42,200 nt of DNA, from the IMG/VR virus record IMGVR_UViG_2522572164_000007; one strand, 5' to 3'. This document shows positions 2,599 through 42,200 of the stretch, one piece after another. The DNA comes from a virus (lineage: Duplodnaviria; Heunggongvirae; Uroviricota; Caudoviricetes). The first letter of the stretch is position 1. Every line of letters begins with the position of its first letter. A program made the position numbers and the translations under genes. The notes under the pieces are model-generated. The model worked only from the letters and a program-made list of their open reading frames with translations, ran no database searches and had not been told where the DNA came from.

Positions 2599-3168
2599 TC
2601 AACTCCGGCTACAGCCAAAATTGCGCTCACCGGTGCAGTGAGCTTTGGTATGCTCCTTCGCCAGATAGTCAGCACGTTCCAGCACCTGCTGAAAGCCGGT
2701 GTCATCATTACGCGCCAGCCACACCGCCGGCCAGGCCGGAAAATGCACCAGCGTGGCATGGCACCCGACATCCACTCCCAGGGCACTGCACCACGCCTGT
2801 TTAATCATCCCGGCCAGAGACTCCGGAGCGCGGTAATCACCGGCACGACACCAGGTATCCCGGTTGACCAGCAGCATCAGGTGATAGTGTTTTTTACCTT
2901 TGCACTCCCCAAACTCCCGGGCCCAGACGTAATGCAGGGTTGTGGGATGCACGCGTTTACCTTCCCGATGCTTACGTTTCTGGTAAGCGTCGATTCGGGC
3001 TTTCAGGGCATTGATGAAGCGGGATATCACAGCTGCGTCCGTTGCTGCCGGTACATCCGGGAGACGCAGGTCAACCCGCAATGCCGTCAGGCGGGGATGA
3101 ACATTCAGTGCGTGCCGCACCGTCTCACGAATACGTTGCTGCCAGAAGGGGTTGTATTTGTAGGTCAT
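2599..3168 (-). CDS. YagK/YfjJ-like (inovirus Gp2 family) protein
   Basis: ORF 2599..3240 trimmed to the ATG at 3168 with a GGAGA RBS; family assignment is from memory of E. coli cryptic-prophage YfjJ/YagK proteins. Confidence 0.45.
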   Translation of the reverse strand: MTYKYNPFWQQRIRETVRHALNVHPRLTALRVDLRLPDVPAATDAAVISRFINALKARIDAYQKRKHREGKRVHPTTLHYVWAREFGECKGKKHYHLMLLVNRDTWCRAGDYRAPESLAGMIKQAWCSALGVDVGCHATLVHFPAWPAVWLARNDDTGFQQVLERADYLAKEHTKAHCTGERNFGCSRS

Positions 3169-3333
3169 GGTTAAATCTCCGTATGGTTCATACGGAATAG
3201 CCACGTATAGCGCGGCGATTTTTTTGATACCGATTTGCATTTCATTTGATACCGCTGAAAAACGCCGATACGCAACTTATTTGATACTAAATCGGCGCTT
3301 TTCTTTTGAGTTTTAGAATGAGTTTTTAAGCGC

Positions 3334-4071
3334 TCATTCACTCTCTTTCAAACCAGTTTTAACTGTTTGTGGTTTTGGGTAAGGGTGGACTTTGAATAGC
3401 TTTGTGTTGAGGCGTTTTCTGGCCCTCTTGTTCAGAAACCGGATGTAACGAAACTGTCGGAACTTATGCACACTGGCTCTGTCGATATTAGCCCTCAGAT
3501 GTTCACCTCGTTGTCCGCCTCGTTTAATGGCACTCCTGCAAATCTCGTGATACCACTCGCCATCAAGTTCATAGAATGTTGATTCATGGCTGCCTACATA
3601 ATCAAAATTGCTGGCCTGATACACGACACCAAGACAGCCACAACGCTCATCTGCAAACGACTGAACCCACTGTACCTGCGGATAAAGCTGCCTGATTAGC
3701 TTGAGCGCGTAACTGATTGCCCTTGATTCGGAGTTTCTCGGCATACAGTCATGCATCCATAGCCGGTTAAGCTCCATATATTCTCGGTTCTGCGTACCCG
3801 TTACGACGCGTGCACCACTGTTTGGGTTAAGGGCGTAACCCCATTGCATTACGCCAACAAGTTCCCGTTCTGAAAATATACCCAGATGAAGGTAGGAATT
3901 ATTTACGAAACGGTGGCTGTAATGTTTATTGACGATAACCAGTCTGGCCAGCCAGCAACTTATTGTCTCAACCCGCAACTCACGGGAGCCATAACCAACG
4001 ATATTGTCGTTATAGCGAATAAGTTCAGGCGTGCTGATGATACGGGATGTGACTTGCTTTCTGTTCCCCAC
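3334..4071 (-). CDS. mom: Mom-like DNA modification protein
   Basis: 245-aa ORF immediately downstream of, and overlapping, a Com-like zinc-finger gene at the far end of a Mu-like genome; size fits Mu Mom (about 230 aa). Start codon uncertain. Confidence 0.6.
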
Positions 4072-4225
4072 GACAGGATTTCCTTGTGTATGTGGGGTGC
4101 TCTGTGGCGCTCGGAGATGTGATTTGATTGAGGGTTTTACAGCGCGGACATTTTACTTCCAGATAACTGAAACTGGCCCGTGCCAGTAGCTTATTGCAGT
4201 GTCGGCACCGTATGTTTCGATACAT
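4025..4225 (-). CDS. com: Com-like zinc-finger translational activator of mom
   Basis: ORF 4025..4270 trimmed to the ATG at 4225 (GGAGG upstream). [30 protein letters not shown] resembles the Mu Com motif IRCKNCNKLL...CPRCK. Confidence 0.7.
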
Positions 4226-4261
4226 GGCCGCATAACCTCCTGCTTTGTTGTTGATGCCTTT

Positions 4262-4450
4262 CTCATGCAATCGATCGACAAAAACGATCGATTCGATTTG
4301 TTTAATTGATACAACAAATAGATTTAAAAGTCATCAACAATGATTCAGGGCGGTGATTATTTACTTAAAGAAACGAAGAGTTAGGTGGTGAAAACGATCA
4401 TAAAATGATCATTTTATTGACTTTTTATACAGTGAAGGTAGGATCGCGCG
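4262..4450 (-). promoter_or_regulatory. com-mom upstream regulatory region with clustered GATC (Dam) sites
   Basis: GATC at 4273, 4286, 4396, 4407 and 4442 (five in under 190 bp), directly upstream of com. Mu Pmom is known to be controlled by Dam methylation of upstream GATC sites that affects OxyR binding. Confidence 0.45.
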
Positions 4451-5358: not shown

Positions 5359-7416
5359 TTATGCCGCAGGGGTATTAACCTCAAGGACAACGCTCTCAAA
5401 AGACACGCCATAAGTTGCCCCTTTGGTGACATCTGTCAGTGTCAGCGTATCTTTGGCAGGGGAAAGTGCATCTTTCACCATCTGGAATGCCTGGCCCGGA
5501 GTGCCATCCAGCACAGGCGTTACCTGGGCACTTCCCGCCGTAAACTTCAGGACAAGTGTATGCCACTGGTTATTGTAGGCTCCAAATGATCCCAGTTTCG
5601 TATTCCCCCCTGTTTTATGGTGCATCAGATTTAACTGGCCGCCTGTTGTCTGGAGATAATACGCCATCAGGAACGGTGTGCCTGTACCACTCATGGTTAC
5701 ACCTTCCGGGACCGTATCGGTGTGGAGGTAAATACCCAGAGCAAACTGGCCTTCTTTTACTTCACCTGACAGACGGAATTTACAGGTCAACTGACCACCA
5801 TGCTTCAGAAGTTCACCGGCTGCATCAGTTCCATGGGTAAGCGTCCAGGTTTTTCCGCTTTGTTTGGATACGGTCAACGCTTTACCTTCGTCCGTCAGCT
5901 GGATTGTACCATCTGTAATTTTCCAGCCCTGAGCCGGGGCTTCTCCTGCTGATGCTTTAAGTGAAAGCAGCGTACGGAGTGACGGGGATGTCGGATGGGG
6001 GGACTCACTGCCTCCTGGCTGACTACCTGTCGGCGCTTCCGGTTTCCCACCCGGCGCGGGCTGAGGCAGGGCTTCACCATCAGGGGCCACACCGGCAATA
6101 AATGCAGAGGTCAGACCTGCATATTTAAGAATTGCTGATGCAAAACGATCTGAGACCAGAAAACGGCGCGCCCAGGAGCTAAAATGGGTTGCCCTGGATG
6201 CTGTTGTCCAGTTGCCATCTCCCCGTGATTCCGCACCATAATACCCGGCAGAAGCGATATCCGGGTCGTGCTCCGGCAGGTTGGTCGCGGTTTTATTACC
6301 GAACTCATCGTGCATCAGTGGAACAAAGTGAATGTTCTCGGAAGCCCGGTTTTTATATCCGCTATAAATGGTTTCATATGCCGCCGGGTTCTTCTCTTTC
6401 CAGTCATAGGTTGTGTCACCACATAACCACGGCACACTGTCTGATGAACCACCAATACACTGACCGGAGAAAGCACCAAGATCCGCACGGAATTTTTTCA
6501 CCATCGCAGTAAACTGGGCACCATGCTGGGCCGGGGTCGCTTTAAGGTCTCCTTCCCCCTGAATCCATACGACAGATAACAGCACATTCTTTGGATTCGC
6601 CTCAAGTGCCGCTTTAGTTCGACTGACAAGATCCTGATACAGTGGGGTATCCACTCCCCAGCGTAGTGACGCCTCGGCTGCACCACTTGCCGGATCGAAT
6701 GAGCCAACTGCGCCGGTTGTAAAAGCAGAGCCGCCACGGGCACAGGGAACCAGTAAAATCCCGGCATCAGCAGGAATCACCGGTAATACTTTTTTCGCAA
6801 TATGAAGTCCCTGCCCCACACAACCATACTGCCCTTTTTTCAGGTCTGCTTTTGGATGGTTCAGCAGACTCATATTCTGAACATCATGAAGGCAGTGATC
6901 TGCTGGAATGATTTCATTGTATTTGCAGGGAATACCTCCGGGGGTTTGTGTATTCCTGCGTGCCAGCTGCATAATACGTGGATCAGGACGATCATAAGAA
7001 TCCGGAAGGGGCAACCCTTCACCATAAGATGAAGCATTGGACTGGCCGGCTATAACAATCACGTAATACCAGGAAGGGGAGCTGGAAGCCGTTTCATTTC
7101 CTGCCGGACGGGTATGTGTTTCTGCATTATCCCAGTCTGACGGTTCAGCAGTACCGGCAACATCAGCACTTAACGGAATGACAGCACCAATACCCGCTCC
7201 GGTAATTTCCACGTTCGGATCACCGGATACTGGCCTTACCCACAGGCAATCCTGTGTATTAAAACTGATGAGACAGTCAGCAAATGTCATTCCTCCTTTC
7301 GTTTCAGCAGGAGGAAAGGGAGCCTCAAGAAATGCCGCTGTACCACCGGAAACTTTAACGGTAAAGTTTCCGGGCATTGATGATAGTTGAACCCATTTGG
7401 ACGTCATAATATTCAT
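5359..7416 (-). CDS. Sialate O-acetylesterase, NanS-p-like (SGNH hydrolase) with extra N- and C-terminal domains
   Basis: 685-aa ORF with YVIVIAGQSNASSYGEG (GQSN block of SGNH esterases); overall architecture resembles the prophage NanS-p esterases of enterohaemorrhagic E. coli. Confidence 0.7.
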   Translation of the reverse strand: MNIMTSKWVQLSSMPGNFTVKVSGGTAAFLEAPFPPAETKGGMTFADCLISFNTQDCLWVRPVSGDPNVEITGAGIGAVIPLSADVAGTAEPSDWDNAETHTRPAGNETASSSPSWYYVIVIAGQSNASSYGEGLPLPDSYDRPDPRIMQLARRNTQTPGGIPCKYNEIIPADHCLHDVQNMSLLNHPKADLKKGQYGCVGQGLHIAKKVLPVIPADAGILLVPCARGGSAFTTGAVGSFDPASGAAEASLRWGVDTPLYQDLVSRTKAALEANPKNVLLSVVWIQGEGDLKATPAQHGAQFTAMVKKFRADLGAFSGQCIGGSSDSVPWLCGDTTYDWKEKNPAAYETIYSGYKNRASENIHFVPLMHDEFGNKTATNLPEHDPDIASAGYYGAESRGDGNWTTASRATHFSSWARRFLVSDRFASAILKYAGLTSAFIAGVAPDGEALPQPAPGGKPEAPTGSQPGGSESPHPTSPSLRTLLSLKASAGEAPAQGWKITDGTIQLTDEGKALTVSKQSGKTWTLTHGTDAAGELLKHGGQLTCKFRLSGEVKEGQFALGIYLHTDTVPEGVTMSGTGTPFLMAYYLQTTGGQLNLMHHKTGGNTKLGSFGAYNNQWHTLVLKFTAGSAQVTPVLDGTPGQAFQMVKDALSPAKDTLTLTDVTKGATYGVSFESVVLEVNTPAA

Positions 7417-7506: not shown

Positions 7507-8067
7507 TTATTTTTCCGAAACGCTCGCAGGATAATAACGATAAAGGGTTGAAAGGCCGATATCAAAAATAAGTGCCACCTGTCTTCGACTGACACCCCCG
7601 GCCAGTAAACGCCCGACCTGCTCGTATTGTTCCTGCGTGAGACGACGGGGTCTGCCGCCGGTTCGTCCCCTTTCACGGGCAGCTGCAAGACCAGCCCGTG
7701 TCCGTTCGACAATTAATTCACGCTCCATTTCTGCCAGCGCACCCATTATGTGAAAAAAGAAGCGCCCCATGGGGGTTGACGTATCAATGTTGTCAGTAAG
7801 ACTACGAAAATTTATCCCCTGTTGCTGTAATTCATCTGTCAGCGCAACAAGGTGGCGCATACTGCGCCCCAGCCTGTCCAGTTTCCAGACCATCAGTGTG
7901 TCACCGGGTTTTAGTTTCTTCAGTGCCCGCTTCAGTCCCGGCCGCTGTGTCGTTTTACCACTCATTTTATCTTCAAAAATCTGCTCACATCCTGCACATT
8001 CCAGCGCATTTCTTTGTAAACCTGTGTTCTGGTCATTTGTTGATACGCGTATATAGCCAATCAGCAT
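7507..8067 (-). CDS. gin: Serine recombinase, DNA invertase Gin/Hin/Pin/Cin family
   Basis: 186 aa; MLIGYIRVSTNDQNTGLQRNAL... is the resolvase/invertase catalytic N-terminus, with a C-terminal HTH (GRPRRL...STLYRY). Confidence 0.9.
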   Translation of the reverse strand: MLIGYIRVSTNDQNTGLQRNALECAGCEQIFEDKMSGKTTQRPGLKRALKKLKPGDTLMVWKLDRLGRSMRHLVALTDELQQQGINFRSLTDNIDTSTPMGRFFFHIMGALAEMERELIVERTRAGLAAARERGRTGGRPRRLTQEQYEQVGRLLAGGVSRRQVALIFDIGLSTLYRYYPASVSEK

Positions 8068-8122
8068 GTATTTACCTTCCTTAAAAAGAGGTGAAAATGC
8101 CTTTTAAAACAGATATACGGCA

Positions 8123-8148
8123 TCCCTGAAACCTCGGTTTACGGGATA
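8123..8148. other. gix-like recombination site (gin-proximal boundary of the invertible segment)
   Basis: Core AAACCTCGGTTTAC at 8129..8142 matches the Mu gix core as I recall it (TTATCCAAAACCTCGGTTTACAGGAA). Confidence 0.6.
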
Positions 8149-8492
8149 CTGTAAACAGGGCCGCGAATGCCCTGCCATCGAACGGAGCGGCTGTTGCAGC
8201 GAATAAACTCGCCACTCCAAGAAATATTAATGGTGTCCCATTTGACGGAACGCAGGATATAAATATTACATCGGGGATGACGCAGTCTGTGGCTGACTCA
8301 CGTTATGTTCAAAGCATTCGAAGAGGTTCAAGGTCAACGATTGGAATGCAATATAATATTTTTGAGGTTCCTGACGGATGCGTACTTACAGGGCTTGATG
8401 TCGCTGGTGATGGTAATGCAACGGTAACCGCATATTATCGACCTGTTCAGTTTCTGATAGATGGTTCGTGGAAAACAGCTTCCAGCGCATAA
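8130..8492 (+). CDS. Silent alternative tail-fibre C-terminal cassette (S'v-like; promoterless in this orientation)
   Basis: Open frame from the gix site to the stop at 8492; NLGLRDTVNRAANALPS...[23 protein letters not shown] parallels residues of the expressed fibre, then a divergent C-terminus. Confidence 0.6.
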   Translation, partial: NLGLRDTVNRAANALPSNGAAVAANKLATPRNINGVPFDGTQDINITSGMTQSVADSRYVQSIRRGSRSTIGMQYNIFEVPDGCVLTGLDVAGDGNATVTAYYRPVQFLIDGSWKTASSA

Positions 8493-8571
8493 AAGTGCAG
8501 TAGTTCAAAAAACAGATTATCTGAATAAATATATGATGATTTTGTCTTTTCAACAAAAACAAGGTGAAATA

Positions 8572-9093
8572 ATGGAGCTTATTAACGTAAAACGATATTA
8601 CCCGGAACACAAACCCTATGGTGAGGATGTTCAGTATTTCCAGAGTGAGGACGGAAGGGATTTTTATGAATCTATCCCGCTTTTCACAAAGAAATACAAA
8701 CTCTGTATTTCGCCTGTAACGGGTATTATCTGCTCTGTTGCTGAAGATGTCTCTGCTTTATATCCGGCAGGTTTTACTGTTGTTGAAGTGGACGAACTGC
8801 CGGAAGGTGTGAATATTGACGGTAACTGGCAGTTTTCTGATGGCCTGATATCAAAGGTGCCGGTAAACTGGAAGACGGTTGCTGAAAAGCGTCGCTCATC
8901 GCTGCTCCAGGAAGCCAACGAAACCGTGGATGACTGGAAAACAGAATTAAAACTGGACATGATTAGCGATGAAAATAAATTACAGCTGACGCGCTGGATG
9001 GCGTATATCCGACAGCTTAAAGAAATGCACTTTAATGATATTGCCAGTGAGGGGCATTACCAGGCGATTCCCTGGCCGGAAAAACCGGAATAA
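8572..9093 (+). CDS. Tail fibre assembly protein (U'-like)
   Basis: ORF 8461..9093 trimmed to the ATG at 8572 with an AGGTG RBS; C-terminus ...IPWPEKPE resembles the conserved Tfa C-terminus. Confidence 0.65.
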   Translation: MELINVKRYYPEHKPYGEDVQYFQSEDGRDFYESIPLFTKKYKLCISPVTGIICSVAEDVSALYPAGFTVVEVDELPEGVNIDGNWQFSDGLISKVPVNWKTVAEKRRSSLLQEANETVDDWKTELKLDMISDENKLQLTRWMAYIRQLKEMHFNDIASEGHYQAIPWPEKPE

Positions 9094-9127
9094 TTCAGAG
9101 GGTGCATTCAGCACCCTTTTCTGTGGT

Positions 9128-10039
9128 TTACACTGAACTTACCGTTCTCCAGGCATTATTAATATAAATCTGAACCGGGCGATAATAGACCCCACCGATA
9201 TTGTCCGCAGACCGGGAGCCGGTTTCCTGCACGTTAATACCGGAAAGCATACAACCGGAAGGTGCGCTGTAATTCCATGATATTTCATTGCCTCCGGGTG
9301 AATGATAGCTCTGTGCTCCAAGCTGAACATTCTGTACATACCGGCCATCTGCGGTTGACTGCGTCATTCCTGACGTGATGTTGATATCCTGCGTTCCGTC
9401 AAAAGGAACGCCATTAATATTTTTTGGGGTGGCGAGTCTGTTTGCTGCCACGGCGGTTCCACCCGATGGCAGGGCATCAGCAGCCTTATTTACCGTTTCC
9501 CGTAAACCGACGTTATCGATAAAAGCGCCTTTATCCGGAATGTCTGCGCCATTCTGGTCCCTGCGCAGGTAACGGTTATCACCTTCGCTCTTGCTGTAAA
9601 CATCCAGATTATTACGGGCGGTTCCCTTATTCTCCAGGTCGGCGAGATTCTGATCCTTCGCCAGGGCATTAACGTCACCGGGACCAAGACTGTTTTTTGT
9701 GGCAAGCGTCCCCAGACCAAGATAACCACGGGCCAGACGCTGGGCCTCCGCACCGGCATCAGCAATTTCTTTCAGGTTATTTTTCCGGGAAAAAGCATTC
9801 GCAGCGATAATGGCTTTAATAGACAGCGTAAGCTGGTTTAACTGCGCCTTATCCGGCTGAATACTGGCTTCAGCCAGAATATTCAGCAGTTCGGCCTGGA
9901 GAATATTCAGCCAGTCCTGACCAATCCAGCTGATACCTTTTTGTCCGTCACCTTCGGTAAACCAGGTGGTGGTATTACTCTGCGCCGGTGCCAGCGCAGG
10001 CATATTCGCCACGCCGGAATTATTATCAACATGGAACAT
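9128..10039 (-). CDS. Tail fibre protein (S-like; constant part plus the currently expressed variable C-terminus)
   Basis: ORF 9128..10093 trimmed to the ATG at 10039, which overlaps the upstream stop by 1 nt; contains the second gix site; last gene of the tail operon. Confidence 0.7.
9493..9518. other. gix-like recombination site inside the tail-fibre gene
   Basis: Reverse complement reads AACGTCGGTTTACGGGAAAC, sharing TCGGTTTACGGGA with the site at 8123..8148 in inverted orientation. Confidence 0.55.
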
Positions 10040-10599
10040 TAAATATTCTCCTCTTCGTGACTGTTTGCATATACGTAAATAAACGTCTGCCATGCAGGCT
10101 TATAACGGTTCAGAATACATTCCAGCGCACCGCCTTCATAAATACGCAGCGGCGTGAGAATATCATCCAGCACATTCATATTCCGGTAGCCGGTTTCACT
10201 GTTAATCGTGACAATACTGACCCACTGTGAATCCGGTGATGGCTGAATATCTATTTCATAACCAAACTCTGCCGCAAACCGGATATAAAATTCACGGTTA
10301 AGAGAGGGTTTCATCCGGTATTTATTCCCGGCATAACGCTGACGCTCCTGAATGGTTGCGCCGGTCATATCACATTCCGGTAACCCCAGATAACGCTCCC
10401 AGTCTTCCAGCAGCAGACGGGATGAATCAGGAAAACGTTCTGCCAGCATCTGGTTACCGGTCCAGGAAACACGCTCCGTGGAATGACTGAGGCCCAGGCA
10501 CAAAGCCGCAAGAACGGATGACGGCCGCTTATCCCATGCCAGCCCGTCAGGCAGCAACTGCAACAGGGCGCGCTGATGCGGGGTCAGGGTTACAGCCAT
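10039..10599 (-). CDS. Tail/baseplate protein (Mu gp48-like)
   Basis: 186-aa ORF at the Mu gp48 position between the baseplate J-like gene and the fibre. Confidence 0.55.
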
Positions 10600-21358: not shown

Positions 21359-22306
21359 TTACAGATAATCCGCGACAACCAGCTCCAGCTTGCCCTTCAT
21401 CTCGTTAGAGACGGTTGCGTTTCCGTCTGCGAACAGTTCACGCTCCAGCAGCTGCACCGCCTGTTTTTCCAGCGAGGTGGGGACAACAATATGGGTGGGT
21501 TTAATGCCGAGTTTGCGGCCACCGTCAGCGGTAAATTCGCGCATGGCTGACCAGCCGTGCCACAGTGCATCCAGCGTCAGCGGTGACTGCATCATGTAGG
21601 CCATCTGCCAGAAGCCGTAGCCCACATTGCGACGGGCGGATGCACCAAACACAAATTCGTTATCGGTGAATGCGCGACCTTCATCGACTTTGGTCTGGGC
21701 AACCAGTTCAGCCTTACGGCGATCCTGATAAATCAGCGGTTTTACCGCGCGGGAGCAGTCAAGCAGATACCAGGCCGGACCGCTGTAATCAGCCTGTGCG
21801 CCGACAGAGCCGGTTTTTGCCACAAACATATTGCTGACCATCTGCGCATCCCCGGAGCCATCCACTTTGGGGTAAACCGGATGTTCGGTATCAAAGAAGT
21901 TCTGACCGTCATAGCAGGCCGCACTGATCCCGTCACGCAGGGCAGCAAAGACCAGCTCATCCGGTTGTACCGCCGCAGCGCGCCCCATCTCCTGGAACAA
22001 CGGGGAATAAATACCGAGGTTGTCGTCTTCGAAGTCATCGCGGCTAATGGCGACAGTGCCTTCAAAAGTTTTGTTCACGATGGCATAGCCATAGGCTTTC
22101 ATCTTCTCGATGACGCGGGAGCCGATCCACTCACGGAACTGCGGGAACTGCCCCAGCCAGCCGTAGGTGTTGGATTTCGATGTGGAGGGCACGGTCATCG
22201 CAATTTTTTTATACTGCGACGGGGCCATGGACATCCCGGCCTGAAAATCAGAACGGTAGCCCGTCATCAGGGCGGTGATCATCGCCGGTGTAATCGGGGT
22301 AGGCAT
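21359..22306 (-). CDS. Major capsid protein (Mu T-like)
   Basis: 315-aa ORF immediately downstream of the protease/scaffold gene; size matches Mu T. Confidence 0.75.
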   Translation of the reverse strand: MPTPITPAMITALMTGYRSDFQAGMSMAPSQYKKIAMTVPSTSKSNTYGWLGQFPQFREWIGSRVIEKMKAYGYAIVNKTFEGTVAISRDDFEDDNLGIYSPLFQEMGRAAAVQPDELVFAALRDGISAACYDGQNFFDTEHPVYPKVDGSGDAQMVSNMFVAKTGSVGAQADYSGPAWYLLDCSRAVKPLIYQDRRKAELVAQTKVDEGRAFTDNEFVFGASARRNVGYGFWQMAYMMQSPLTLDALWHGWSAMREFTADGGRKLGIKPTHIVVPTSLEKQAVQLLERELFADGNATVSNEMKGKLELVVADYL

Positions 22307-37807: not shown

Positions 37808-38035
37808 TTAGCTGACTTGTTTCGCACCAACAGAACGGCATATTCCGCTGTAAACGTCTGTCGCACCTTCGCGATCAAGTCCGGCAGATATCACCATTCG
37901 TGTGCGGTCATTAAATTCAAAAAGTAAATCGCCACATGCTTTATTTTCGGCCAGTGAAATCACCTTCACGTTATCGAAATTAACCAGGTAAAAGCGTCCG
38001 TAAATATCAGGAATATTAAATACCGCCATAATCAC
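37808..38035 (-). CDS. Hypothetical early protein at the position of Mu kil
   Basis: 75-aa ORF overlapping the end of the MuB-like gene (ATGA); Mu kil occupies this position and size, but identity is not shown by sequence. Confidence 0.4.
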   Translation of the reverse strand: MIMAVFNIPDIYGRFYLVNFDNVKVISLAENKACGDLLFEFNDRTRMVISAGLDREGATDVYSGICRSVGAKQVS

Positions 38036-38964
38036 ACCTGTGAGAGTAATTCAGGGTTGGTATAAACCTCTTTAAAGGCCGCATTAATATGTTTTTCTGT
38101 CAGCGCCGCGCCTTCACCGCTGGCGGTGAGCCACGCCTGGTTAAGCGTATGTGTCAGAACGCGTAATGCTCCCGGCTTTTCAGCGATAGCCTGCATGACG
38201 GCCAGCTCGGCCTCACCACTGATACCCCATGCCCTGGCAATGGCCAGCACATCCGCCTTTTTGGCCTTGCGAAGTTGTTTTGTACGGGCAAGACGGCTGA
38301 ACAGGCGCGATAAATCATCAAAGGCGCGGCGTCCACCTTTAAACAATCCGCGCGGGTTACCAATAAGCACCATCCCGATCCCCGTGGCGTCCTGAATTGC
38401 CCGGAGTTGCTCCAGACCGTCAATACCAAGATGATCCGCCTCATCCACAATCACCAGTCCACGCGTTCCCGTCAGGCGACGGCGGATGGCGCGGGATAAT
38501 GCCCCTTTGTTCGCGCGGGTGTAATCAATCCCCAGCGCATCGGCCAGCTCCAGCAGACACTCCGTGACGCTGGAGTGCGCGGGTGACAGGGTGATCATCC
38601 AGGTGTTTGGTTGCTCCTGGCAGTAATTACGGGCAGTGGCCGTTTTACCCACACCCGGTACGCCCACAATAACGTTAATACAGCCCATCAGGCGAACCGC
38701 CTGAAACAGTGCGCGCAGCTCCTGGACTGTCTGAGTTTCCACAAACTGCGGCGGTTCCGGCAGTGCGCTTTGTTTATTCCAGTTCTCATACCAGGAGCGC
38801 AGGGAAGCAGCCACAGCGGCGTTATCGCCTTTATATTTCCCCTTGCGGAAAGCCGATAATGTGCCGTCGGAAATTCCCGCCTCTCTGGCGATGGCATACT
38901 GCGTCAGCACGCCGCCATCAATAAGTTCATCAATGGTCTTGATTACATCGTTTATATCGGTCAT
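38032..38964 (-). CDS. B: MuB-like AAA+ ATPase (target DNA activator)
   Basis: 310 aa; Walker A GVPGVGKT, Walker B LVIVDEADHL, N-terminal HTH; immediately downstream of the transposase. Confidence 0.85.
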   Translation of the reverse strand: MTDINDVIKTIDELIDGGVLTQYAIAREAGISDGTLSAFRKGKYKGDNAAVAASLRSWYENWNKQSALPEPPQFVETQTVQELRALFQAVRLMGCINVIVGVPGVGKTATARNYCQEQPNTWMITLSPAHSSVTECLLELADALGIDYTRANKGALSRAIRRRLTGTRGLVIVDEADHLGIDGLEQLRAIQDATGIGMVLIGNPRGLFKGGRRAFDDLSRLFSRLARTKQLRKAKKADVLAIARAWGISGEAELAVMQAIAEKPGALRVLTHTLNQAWLTASGEGAALTEKHINAAFKEVYTNPELLSQV

Positions 38965-39039: not shown

Positions 39040-41130
39040 TCAGGCCAGAGGGTCATTTTCTTTTAATTTCGCTTCGAGCAACTGCAATCCCCGCTGGAAA
39101 TTACGCTCGTATTCTTCATCAGGCTCATCATCAACGGCAGGTTGCTGAACGGTCACCGTATTACCCACAGGGCGGTATATGTTTTCCAGCCAGGGCTCCT
39201 GCGGCTTGTGCTCCAGCACGTTGACAACCTCATCCTCGGCATCACGGATTTTTTCCTCTGCGCGTTTACGCATACCTTTAAGGCGTTGCTGCTGTTTGTA
39301 GTATTCCGCGCTGACCGGGAAGGCTTCGCGTTTATTGCCGTCCCATACCGCCTCGCAAATCACGCTGCCATCCGGGCGACGTACGGTAATTCGTTCGGCA
39401 TCATGAATGTCATAGCTGATAAGCACCTTGCGGCCATGCTCATCACTCAGCTCGGGCGCGTAGTAAATATTATTCAGCCAGCGTATTTCACAGCGTCTTA
39501 CAGGGCGTTCCACCATTGGCCGGAACATATCCCGCAGCTCAACATCGGACAGCCATTCAATTTCCGTGTCCTCTTCTGCCAGGCGTTTTTTTCTGAACTC
39601 CGCCGGGCTGTAATGCTTCCCGTTCGGCTTCATGGGTAATTCATCGTGCGGCCGGTTGTTGTACCACTCAACGCCATCACGAATGGCATCAATCAGTTCA
39701 GACCAGGACGGTAAATCACGCATCGCTGACTGTTGCCGGGCGTTCAGCCGTTTGCCCTGTTGCAGGGCGGTAAATGCCGAGCGTAAATCGCGGTTGGTTT
39801 TGCGTAACGTCTCGCGATCTGCACCTTTCCCGAAATAGGTGCGGTATTTACGGGCTATGCGCATCGGTAATGTGCGGTTAAGCCGTTCGATAATGCCTCG
39901 CCCCTGCGGATTACCGGCAATCCCGGTCGGGTGATTAATCCCCAGTCGCGGCAGTATCCCCACAACCTCCTTATCCAGGACGTCGGCGGTTTCCCCGGAG
40001 CCGTTATCCGAGTAATACAGAAACGGTTTGCCGTGATGGCGAATGCCGTGCTGTATGGCACCGGCTACGGCGAAAACATTTTCAGCCAGGTCAAGGCTCC
40101 AGCCCACCACAAAGCGCGTGCCACCGTCGATAACAAAGGTCACTTCCGGTGCAAATGGCCGACCGTGAACCGGGTGTGCGCATTTCAGCTTCATGCCGTG
40201 ACCGTCACCAATCCAGACATAATTCACCGGCATTCTGGACCAGTCGCGGCGCGTGAATCCCTCAAGCTGGCGGTATTCACTGCCGGTCACCCGGCCTTTT
40301 TGTTTCACCACTTCCGGCAGTTTCTTCATTGCGCGGCGGATGGTGTCGTAAGACGGCATGATATCGAGCATATAAGGCTCATCAGCGTGCCGGTGCTGCC
40401 ATTCAGCGACAAAATCCTCGTAAGCCTCGGTCATTGGTCGGCCGTTTGACTGGCGATACTGCGCCAGAAATTCGGGCAGCCAGTTAATATCTTCGGCTTT
40501 TATTTCCTGGCGCTTACCAGGTGCCAGCAAAAGCAGGCGTTCAGCGGCGTTCTGCGCCTTGTTAAAGGCTGCAATCCAGCGTTTCAGCGTGATTTCACTC
40601 AACGCACGGCTGTTTCCCTTTTTGGCGTTCGCCGTCTCAACCATTGCCACAATGCGCTCGTCCAGTTGCGAACGTGCCAGGTTGTCAACGATAAACCGGA
40701 TAGCCTTCGCACAGCTGAAACCAGGTTGTTGCGCGACTTTCAGAACTTCGCTGACGATCGCGATTCGTGCATCAGCCACCTGGCGCTGGTTTTCAGTCAG
40801 GGCATTGAGGCGTTCAACCATCAGTTGTGGTGATCCGCGATATGCCTCCACCGCATCAACCACGGCAGGCGAGCGTCTGGCCTTTGTCACCACCGGAGCC
40901 GGTGATTCATCAGCTTTTTGCGTCATCAGTTGAAGGGCATAACGTTCACGCAATACTTGTTGCGCGCCAGAAGGCAAACAATCGATATTAAATTCGATTG
41001 CTTTTGTCCCCTTACGTTTGCGTAACATGGCTGCATTTCCCGCAGCTGCTTTTGTGAGTCGATGGCGAATGTTATGTTCCATCATTGGTAAATCAGGAAG
41101 ACCAACACATTCTTTTGCTGTTACCCACAT
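39040..41130 (-). CDS. A: MuA-like DDE transposase
   Basis: 696-aa ORF; size and position between ner and B. Confidence 0.85.
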   Translation of the reverse strand: MWVTAKECVGLPDLPMMEHNIRHRLTKAAAGNAAMLRKRKGTKAIEFNIDCLPSGAQQVLRERYALQLMTQKADESPAPVVTKARRSPAVVDAVEAYRGSPQLMVERLNALTENQRQVADARIAIVSEVLKVAQQPGFSCAKAIRFIVDNLARSQLDERIVAMVETANAKKGNSRALSEITLKRWIAAFNKAQNAAERLLLLAPGKRQEIKAEDINWLPEFLAQYRQSNGRPMTEAYEDFVAEWQHRHADEPYMLDIMPSYDTIRRAMKKLPEVVKQKGRVTGSEYRQLEGFTRRDWSRMPVNYVWIGDGHGMKLKCAHPVHGRPFAPEVTFVIDGGTRFVVGWSLDLAENVFAVAGAIQHGIRHHGKPFLYYSDNGSGETADVLDKEVVGILPRLGINHPTGIAGNPQGRGIIERLNRTLPMRIARKYRTYFGKGADRETLRKTNRDLRSAFTALQQGKRLNARQQSAMRDLPSWSELIDAIRDGVEWYNNRPHDELPMKPNGKHYSPAEFRKKRLAEEDTEIEWLSDVELRDMFRPMVERPVRRCEIRWLNNIYYAPELSDEHGRKVLISYDIHDAERITVRRPDGSVICEAVWDGNKREAFPVSAEYYKQQQRLKGMRKRAEEKIRDAEDEVVNVLEHKPQEPWLENIYRPVGNTVTVQQPAVDDEPDEEYERNFQRGLQLLEAKLKENDPLA

Positions 41131-41140
41131 ACATCCCCCA

Positions 41141-41407
41141 TCAAGCCACTTCTCTGGCGTCCACCTGGTATCTGCTGGGCCAGATTACAGCAGGTTCAAC
41201 CCCTATTTTTTCGGCGATGGCGGCTTCGTATTTACGGCACTGGCGGTAAAACACATTGCGCATTGATCCGCTTTTTAATCCTAACTCCCTTTCCAGTTCA
41301 GGGAGGTCTGTGCCTTTGTTTTCAAGGGCTGCATATACCGCTTTAGCAGACCAGTCACACCCCTCTCGAACAAACAAATTATTCGATGCTTGTCTGGATA
41401 CCCTCAT
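41141..41407 (-). CDS. ner: Ner-like DNA-binding regulator
   Basis: 88 aa; C-terminal ...EPAVIWPSRYQ... matches the Mu Ner motif (...KPEVIWPSRYQ). Confidence 0.75.
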   Translation of the reverse strand: MRVSRQASNNLFVREGCDWSAKAVYAALENKGTDLPELERELGLKSGSMRNVFYRQCRKYEAAIAEKIGVEPAVIWPSRYQVDAREVA

Positions 41408-41423
41408 TGTGTGATCCTCTCAT

Positions 41424-41469
41424 GTTTACCTAAACCGATAATCAAAACCGGTTATCGATTTAGGTAAAC
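41424..41469. promoter_or_regulatory. Operator-like dyad between ner and the repressor gene
   Basis: GTTTACCTAAACCGATAA - 10 bp - TTATCGATTTAGGTAAAC; 17 of 18 bases form an inverted repeat. Confidence 0.5.
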
Positions 41470-41558
41470 GATACTCGAACAATAATCCGAGATCAAGCTT
41501 TTTGTTCGGTTTATTGTTTGGTTTTTCTTTTGTGCGTTTTTGTAGGAAAACCATTTTT

Positions 41559-42200
41559 ATGACAAATAGTTATGAAGAAAAAACCGATGTGAAAAGGGAA
41601 AAGTTAGATCGGATTATTAGCCGGAGCACAATAAACCGCTTTGGTGAAAGGCTCAAAGTGGCCATGAAAGGGATGAGTAATGCCGAATTAGCGAGACGAA
41701 GTGGCATGTCCGAAACAACAATAAGGAAATACCTACAGGGAAAGATTTACCCTGCACTTGATAGCCTGGCTATTGTTGCTGACGCTTGCGGGGTATCTCT
41801 GACTTGGCTCGCGACTGGAGAACAACAAGCAAACCAAACAATAGTTCGAGATGATGCTAAACAAAATTATGACAATGAGTATGAATTACTCATTCACTTA
41901 CTTCATAAGCTCAAAAAAGAAGAATGTGTATTACTGGTTGATTTCATATCGCGTGAGGGCGTAAACACCCTTATAAGATTGGTGGCAATGAATGCCTCTA
42001 CGATCAGCCAGGATGCCGTAGAAAGCATCATTGATACGTTACCGTTACGTCCAGTGCTAAAAAATGCAATAAAAGTAGGAATGGCGGGAAGCGAAGACAC
42101 TGACAAAGAGATTTTGCGCGTTATTGAGAAGTACAACTCGAGCAATAACGCCACCCAGGAATCAAGGGCAGTGACAGTAAAGAAAAATGTTGTTGGTTAA
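41559..42200 (+). CDS. Prophage repressor, XRE-family HTH
   Basis: ORF 41502..42200 trimmed to the ATG at 41559 with an AGGAAA RBS; HTH SNAELARRSGMSETTIRKYLQGK; divergent from ner, as Mu c is. Confidence 0.6.
   Translation: MTNSYEEKTDVKREKLDRIISRSTINRFGERLKVAMKGMSNAELARRSGMSETTIRKYLQGKIYPALDSLAIVADACGVSLTWLATGEQQANQTIVRDDAKQNYDNEYELLIHLLHKLKKEECVLLVDFISREGVNTLIRLVAMNASTISQDAVESIIDTLPLRPVLKNAIKVGMAGSEDTDKEILRVIEKYNSSNNATQESRAVTVKKNVVG

Follow-up and report, generated by a model that had tools for sequence, protein, structure and literature searches.

The stretch of viral DNA analyzed here (42,200 nt, referred to as the window) contains an almost complete Mu-like prophage, oriented along the minus strand. 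Positions 3169 to 3333 exactly fill the space that separates the mom stop codon from the ATG of a gene of the YagK/YfjJ type, both genes being read from the minus strand. A preliminary description had suggested, by analogy with Mu, whose genome ends shortly after mom, that the right end of the prophage lies in this interval and that three TTTGATAC repeats and a GCGCGGCG motif could be end sites for the transposase. The locus raises two questions, namely, at which base the prophage ends and what the repeats serve.

The motifs are present as described: three copies of TTTGATAC on the plus strand, starting at 3223, 3245, and 3280, and a GCGCGGCG starting at 3210 (Table 1). The lone further TTTGATAC of the window is found at 21888 on the minus strand, giving a total of 4 against 1.04 expected. 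By arithmetic from the window rate, 0.004 copies would be expected in 165 bp, and the Poisson probability of three is about 1e-8. With one mismatch allowed, the count (33 versus 28 expected in the window) was at chance level, and these variants showed no enrichment and no clusters elsewhere in the window. In the output of a repeat finder, the repeated unit was 16 nt long (GC-N6-TTTGATAC), with its three copies at spacings of 22 and 35 bp, and the unit shared by the second and third copies reached 23 nt. As a word, GCGCGGCG was unremarkable in the window (6 versus 3.6 expected; 15 of 100 shuffles reached that number). Its significance derives from its position at bases 5 to 12 of the prophage terminus, as located below, and from the conservation of AGCGCG at this place in relatives.

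Table 1. Positions of the features at the prophage right end and of the related genes in the window
Feature	Position	Strand	Description
YagK/YfjJ-type ("inovirus Gp2 family") host gene	2599-3168	-	YagK_YfjJ_C, E = 4e-48
Host DNA	3169-3205	-	37 bp upstream of the YagK/YfjJ-type gene; perfect 8-bp hairpin at 3178-3196
CACG, predicted right-hand copy of the target duplication	3202-3205		Predicted from the 4-bp rule in 8/8 relatives and the empty-site sequence
Right terminus and terminal 17-mer TATAGCGCGGCGATTTT	3206-3222	+	Contains GCGCGGCG at 3210-3217; AGCGCG kept in sister clade
R1, TTTGATAC	3223-3230	+	Offset 18-25 from terminus; putative transposase-binding repeat
R2, TTTGATAC	3245-3252	+	Offset 40-47; 22 bp past R1; sister-clade motif also at 40
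R3, TTTGATAC	3280-3287	+	Offset 75-82; 35 bp past R2; sister-clade motif also at 75
Hairpin in mom-sense transcript	3257-3303	-	13-bp stem GAAAAGCGCCGAU / AUCGGCGUUUUUC; R3 in the 21-nt loop
mom, last prophage gene	3334-4071	-	Pfam Mom, E = 8e-77; stop codon 128 bp from terminus
com ORF, overlaps the mom start	4025-4270	-	Pfam Zn_ribbon_Com, E = 3e-12
MuB-type AAA+ transposition ATPase	38032-38964	-	Pfam Phage-MuB_C, E = 2.5e-25; AAA_22
Transposase, 696 aa	39040-41130	-	Distant full-length MuA homolog; proposed repeat binder
Repressor-like HTH gene, prophage left side	41559-42200	+	Pfam HTH_3

The right terminus of the prophage is the T at window position 3206. Independent insertions were gathered by the use of the exact Mom protein (ten) and the exact repressor protein (ten), and the complete prophages of strains 61_150228, CI5, Z1835, NCCP 13963, and Sakai (Sp18), as well as a Stx1a phage, were also used. 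In 17 independent insertions, the window included, the terminal T was invariant and the base preceding it was g, t, a, or c. All right junctions read a variable host flank followed by TATAGCGCGGCGATTTTTTTGATAC (shorter form, TATAGCGCGGCG…), and all left junctions read ...CCTGGTTACA followed by a variable flank; throughout the survey of 17 right and more than 30 left junctions, the termini were invariant and the flanks variable. Since an invariant T follows variable flanks in independent insertions, the terminus was placed at T3206. BLAST searches gave the same boundary. Two phage records split the interval query exactly at 3205/3206, and in E. coli genomes, host-side matches ended at 3204 to 3206 and prophage-side matches began at 3205/3206. 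The sequences of about 3,700 E. coli genomes follow the window as far as 3204 to 3206 and diverge past there, and the last base of the annotated inserted "Mu-like phage" Mu_JNE122137 (GenBank LC727895.1) aligns to 3206. The host-prophage junction of the window itself was present in none of 5,426 complete E. coli genomes searched. With 3206 as the last prophage base, only 3206 to 3333 is phage DNA, and 3169 to 3205 is host DNA. The right end of the prophage does lie inside the interval, at a distance of 128 bp from mom (115 bp in Mu). The terminus had been held to be unfixable without the left end; comparison with other insertions was sufficient to fix it.

On the host side, the unoccupied site in HUSEC2011 reads ...AATAGCCACGTCGTAAAAAATACG. 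The flank belongs to a genomic island with IS66-family orfs (437-784 and 781-1182) and tandem DUF7828/zinc-ribbon paralogs (1516-2037 and 1938-2345), followed by the YagK/YfjJ-type gene. The insertion lies 37 bp upstream of the ATG of this gene, which was thereby probably cut off from its promoter. One could suppose that the repeats are a promoter or operator of this host gene, or a chance cluster, given that they lie upstream of it on its coding strand and that an extended ORF (2599-3240) starts within them. This 213-aa ORF is an artifact whose start is inside the phage end. The repeats, however, move with the prophage to more than 20 unrelated loci and are missing from unoccupied copies of the present host site; a promoter scan of 3000 to 3500 returned no sigma-70-like promoter, and the chance probability is the very small value given above. 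The empty site and the independent insertions refute this explanation, and we assign it a negligible probability.

Three independent right flanks are alike just outside the terminus: ...AGCCACG in the window (3188-3205), ...AGCCTGCG in L343 (2500-2520), and ...GCCCCACG in L007. This likeness may reflect a target preference or a coincidence; no clear 4-bp consensus was seen among all flanks. Locus H4 (SMN013SH2), in which the match ran 18 bp into the flank, was rejected as the same insertion as that of the window, as its site is the TerB gene of a lambdoid prophage; its flank resembles that of the window by chance.

The left end lies outside the window, as had been stated, and was read from prophages that are 99.6 to 99.9% identical over window positions 41100 to 42200. 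In these near-identical prophages, the left terminus is found 356 bp after the stop codon of the repressor-like gene, corresponding to about 356 bp past the window end. Read inward, the left end begins with TGTAACCAGGTGAATCATTTGATACC... and the right end with TATAGCGCGGCGATTTTTTTGATACC.... Exactly six TTTGATAC copies were found at the two ends with up to one mismatch allowed, all of them perfect and all pointing inward. Counted from each terminus, the right-end copies have offsets of 18/40/75 and the left-end copies 18/113/165, with spacings of 22 bp (R1-R2), 35 bp (R2-R3), 95 bp (L1-L2), and 52 bp (L2-L3). The proposed comparison with the left end thus yielded three inverted copies there, the first at the matching offset of 18 to 25. 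Repeats at both ends in mutual inversion, tightly spaced on the right and with a long L1-L2 spacer on the left, are the arrangement of att-type ends. Of the motifs suggested to be transposase end sites, TTTGATAC shows, as far as sequence can tell, the behavior of an end-recognition site at both ends; GCGCGGCG is not a repeat and lies within the terminal 17 bases, outside the first repeat.

The L1-L2 spacer contains additional elements. In L004 (3340-3457, about 240 to 356 bp past the window end), AGGTGA(A)AT-like repeats are present there together with an inverted repeat, TCACCTGT...ACAGGTGA. Both elements are specific for the left end and partly kept across clades (AGGT[GA]A, terminus positions 8 to 13); they are candidate sequences for packaging (pac) or for the binding of a host bending protein.

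The terminal dinucleotides and the target duplication differ from what had been expected. The preliminary description anticipated 5'-TG...CA-3' ends, and the independent insertions gave 5'-TG...TA-3': the left terminus is TG, and the right end, read inward, begins with TATAGCG, such that the transferred strand ends in ...CTATA-3'. The search for a 5-bp target-site duplication returned 4 bp instead in all eight complete prophages (CTTT, CACG, CTCT, GGTG, CTAA, TTTA, TCCT, and TATC), none of which fits 5 bp. When two empty sites were reconstructed with the 4-mer in single copy, they matched E. coli genomes over 176/176 positions without gaps. For the copy in the window, a simple insertion with duplication of CACG is predicted on sequence grounds, and its left junction is predicted to read ...CCTGGTTACA followed by CACGTCGTAAAAAATACG (also given as CACGTCGTAAAAAATACGCAGAG); a search of IMG/VR for the right junction and the predicted left junction of this copy found neither. 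Some lineages have TA at both ends. TA replaces TG at the left terminus in L163, L175, L177, L179, L180, L188, and L190 (TATAACCAGG... and TATAGAGAGG...); these lineages would be TA...TA elements, like the unusual ones of Leptospira. A possible relative in Leminorella has TG at the right end. In Mu, cleavage occurs at terminal CA dinucleotides and joining takes place 5 bp apart (PMC3145075). TG-CA ends and duplications of 5 or 6 bp were given for all described Mu- and B3-like phages in a 2021 paper, in which TA-TA ends were reported as unusual for Leptospira prophages (PMC8705779). None of the papers covered by our literature search reports a 4-bp duplication in a Mu-like phage; the GenBank record LC727895.1 annotates one.

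The gene content of the prophage is that of a Mu-like phage. From the MuB-type ATPase onward, the gene order runs through head and tail genes, a Gin-like invertase (7507-8067), and com to mom. The invertase, a serine recombinase, adjoins opposed tail-fiber/tail-fiber-assembly ORFs (8461-9093, plus strand; 9128-10093, minus strand), which suggests that 7507 to 10093 is a G-segment-like invertible host-range region. A 685-aa protein encoded between the invertase and com (5359-7416, minus strand) has a sialate O-acetylesterase-type SASA domain and a DUF6645; it is conserved in sister prophages and looks like cargo of an accessory right arm. ARAGORN found no tRNA in the window; in the sister prophage of O157:H7 Z1835 (L028, 24998-25078), RefSeq annotates a "tRNA-OTHER" between the virion morphogenesis and minor head genes.

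The transposase aligned with MuA over its whole length (23% identity, E = 2e-13). It matched Pfam Mu-transpos_C and, weakly, HTH_Tnp_Mu_1; the match to the rve core was below threshold, and matches to retroviral integrase cores were also obtained. For a motif-independent test of the repeats, relatives were gathered in IMG/VR via the transposase protein alone, which yielded 65 loci with 72 to 99% identity. All 23 loci with a transposase of 77 to 100% identity and enough upstream DNA had three forward copies of TTTGATAC at the left end and no reverse copy, at offsets of 18/113/165 or, in the group with 77 to 78% identity, 18/122/164; L2 reads TTTGATAT in two of them. The clade with a transposase of 72 to 75% identity, in contrast, is devoid of TTTGATAC and carries three copies of TTCAAGATA at 18/89/141 after a terminal TATGACTAGGTAATTTA at its left end. 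The right-end layout of TTCAAGATA in this sister clade was predicted beforehand and then found on the same contigs: a pattern scan detected TAAAGCGCGGAAAATTA followed by TTCAAGATA at 18/40/75, in the orientation opposite to that on the left, on the L204 and L198 contigs and a further one. R1 is backed both by the left end, with the same motif at the same offset, and by the sister clade, with TTCAAGATA at offset 18. Homologs of mom (72 to 74% identical) and com lie just inside these right ends.

Motif and transposase change together. Compared to the protein of the window, the sister-clade transposase is 58% and 40 to 42% identical in the two 50-residue bins of residues 101 to 200, whereas an equally distant clade that keeps TTTGATAC reaches 74% and 70 to 72% there; the remaining 50-residue bins are alike between the two clades. 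Residues 101 to 200 fall within MuA 77-174 in the pairwise alignment, a mapping that is approximate at 23% identity. MuA 77-174 corresponds to subdomain I-beta, which together with a second subdomain recognizes the att sites. A structure of this region has been solved separately as a DNA-binding subdomain (2EZK/2EZL). Because the extra divergence of the sister clade is limited to the stretch that aligns with MuA 77-174, the co-variation supports a transposase that would read the repeats, even though the motif switch amounts to effectively one evolutionary event (two clades versus one) and other phage proteins differ as well.

The same data bear on the possibility that the interval is the right end but that TTTGATAC is bound by another protein acting at both ends, such as a virion protein that protects or circularizes the ends, a factor for packaging, a regulator (repressor or Ner type), or a nucleoid protein of the host. 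This would be compatible with the differences of the sister clade beyond the transposase and with the variation of transposase residues 1 to 50 and, presumably, of the immunity genes between lineages. However, the only part of the transposase that tracks the motif change is the one aligned with the end-binding subdomain of MuA, and the layout fits MuA sites in its fixed cleavage offset, its 22-bp R1-R2 spacing, and its long L1-L2 spacer; a host protein, moreover, would leave the concerted motif change between phage clades unexplained. We consider binding by another protein quite improbable, and the TTTGATAC repeats are very probably binding places of the transposase.

The interval also bears on mom, whose product is 78% identical to Mom of Mu. 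For com, a 66-aa version is called by RefSeq in sister prophages. In E. coli CI5 (L007, NZ_CP011018.1, 4878929-4880135), the prophage is otherwise near-identical, but a DNA cytosine methyltransferase takes the place of mom after com, which represents a module swap at the right end; this prophage shares a variant right-end spacer with Mu_JNE122137. Folding of the minus-strand RNA of 3206 to 3345 gave -40.2 kcal/mol (z = -5.0). The hairpin at 3257 to 3303, which as an inverted repeat is 92% complementary and whose stem takes in flanking runs of A and U, was not called by a consensus terminator scan, and its loop of 21 nt is atypical. It is only partly kept in variant right ends, and the sister clade has a separate canonical terminator ahead of R3. 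We regard it as plausible that this hairpin is a candidate mom terminator that shares DNA with R3 and the att site. The sole terminator-like match in the scan of 3000 to 3500 was a palindrome on the plus strand, GAATGAGTTTTTAAGCGCTCATTC (3316-3339), which spans the mom stop codon and might stop transcription entering the prophage from outside.

It could be argued from the hairpin that the repeats mainly serve mom expression as a terminator or 3'-end structure, as this strong hairpin and R3 overlap and U residues come after the hairpin in the mom-sense RNA. But R1 and R2 lie outside it, the left end, distant from mom, has three copies of the motif, and in the sister clade, where the separate terminator precedes R3, the offsets of 18/40/75 are unchanged. 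A main role of the repeats in mom expression is therefore highly improbable in our estimation, and the hairpin is better taken as an extra feature that overlaps the repeats.

The element belongs to the known Sp18-like family of E. coli Mu-like prophages and represents another copy, inserted at a new site. Sp18 of E. coli O157:H7 Sakai has an identical first 110 nt of the right end, the same left-end architecture, com-mom at the right end, a 4-bp duplication (TTTA in sorM), and a similar length (about 39 kb); its insertion site differs. Most O157 copies differ in the allele of the repressor region (56 to 58% coverage). In Sakai (NC_002695.2; L155/L156), the RefSeq feature "prophage Sp18" (5040971..5079729) starts one base in on the left and ends five bases out on the right compared to the junctions derived here (5040970..5079724). 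Sp18-like "Mu-like phages" of STEC are known to occupy variable sites among related strains (PMC10132054, PMC7430833), and six putative transposase-binding sites were attributed to Sp18 in the KS10 paper (PMC2628397). Membership in the Sp18 group at a new site means that the finding as such is already known. The statement on six sites probably goes back to Morgan et al. (2002).

Like Mu, the element has genes for a transposase of the MuA type and an ATPase of the MuB type, and it has three repeats per end, which are close together at the right end, with L1 far from L2 and L3 at the left end. Mu has three MuA sites per end at unequal spacing, with a long L1-L2 spacer to which HU binds (PMC3145075). 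The elements differ in the right terminus (TA here versus CA), the duplication (4 versus 5 bp), and the degree of transposase divergence noted above. The repeat is also unrelated to the Mu site consensus, a comparison that rests on the literature description, as a 22-bp consensus fitted the ends of Mu itself only loosely. All right-end copies are direct here, whereas R3 of Mu is inverted.

The TTCAAGATA sister clade consists of enterobacterial Mu-like prophages (IMG/VR UViG_2850808358_000012 and UViG_2513237361_000012). Its right ends have the offsets of the window element and the terminal TA-AGCGCGG, with mom and com on the inner side; the duplication is likewise 4 bp, and L2 and L3 are again 52 bp apart. 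It differs in all six repeats, in its left terminus (TA), and in transposase residues 101 to 200 (40 to 58% identity). The B3/D3112-type phages and the Leptospira TA-TA prophages are likewise transposable and 36 to 40 kb long, and the Leptospira group shows that a TA terminus can function in place of TG/CA (PMC8705779). They have B3/Tn552-family transposases and 6-bp duplications (PMC8705779), in contrast to the MuA-aligned transposase and 4 bp found here. Membership of the window element in the B3/Tn552 type was rejected, given its 4-bp duplication and a transposase that aligns with MuA over the whole length.

Species-representative genomes were also scanned for three spaced TTTGATAC copies. 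The matches listed were mostly unrelated cyanobacterial tandem repeats: in Nostoc and other cyanobacteria, TTTGATAC forms the core of 21-nt tandem repeats (e.g., TTTGATACTCGTGAACGAGTC) that are abundant and have no relation to the prophage. Among the matches listed, only two Sodalis loci and one Leminorella locus were right-end-like. These were found by means of the motif and are informative just for the matching terminal bases and the offset of 17 nt. In one Sodalis locus, a homolog of a tail-fiber-assembly gene lies inside the end, and the Leminorella contig covers about 330 bp of the element before it stops. The contig L141 (2.6 kb), assigned to an archaeal bin, was set aside.

With high confidence, we interpret 3206 to 3333 as attR of an Sp18-type Mu-like transposable prophage and the three TTTGATAC copies as R1 to R3, bound by its MuA-like transposase. 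The element is active, with identical ends at many distinct insertion sites and a location that varies among related strains. The sequence comparisons establish the terminus, the arrangement of the repeats at the two ends, the length of the duplication, and the joint change of motif and transposase. As to the physical binding and the chemistry, we infer by analogy with Mu that the transposase would bind R1 to R3 at offsets 18, 40, and 75, probably via the subdomain that matches MuA residues 77-174, and that the three oppositely oriented copies at the left end (18, 113, and 165) would serve likewise. Transposase bound at both ends would then pair them, make a nick behind the ...TA-3' of the right terminus and the ...CA-3' of the left terminus, and join the ends to target positions 4 bp apart. 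The terminal 17 bases with GCGCGGCG, located between the cleavage point and R1, would probably be contacted near the active site. The hairpin at 3257 to 3303 would probably end mom transcription while sharing DNA with R3.

For the annotation of this locus, the boundary of the prophage is now set to the base (3206), and 3169 to 3205 and the positions below are DNA of the host island. The result is mostly confirmatory, as the locus is an att end of the Mu-like type from a prophage family already known in E. coli. Prophage finders keyed to duplications of 5 or 6 bp and TG...CA ends would miss or misplace the ends of this common STEC-associated family. In the literature searched, no paper was found that describes an Sp18-group variant with a 4-bp stagger, a TA end, and modular end recognition. 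On balance, we favor the view that the Sp18 group is a natural variant of the Mu machine, with a 4-bp stagger, TA as the right-end dinucleotide (and, in some lineages, as that of the left end too), and a modular end recognition in which all six repeats and one transposase subdomain of about 100 residues were switched together, with the positions of the sites (18/40/75) and the terminal AGCGCG unchanged. The paired change of repeat and subdomain between the sister clades constitutes a natural specificity-swap system for end reading and target stagger of MuA-type transposases.
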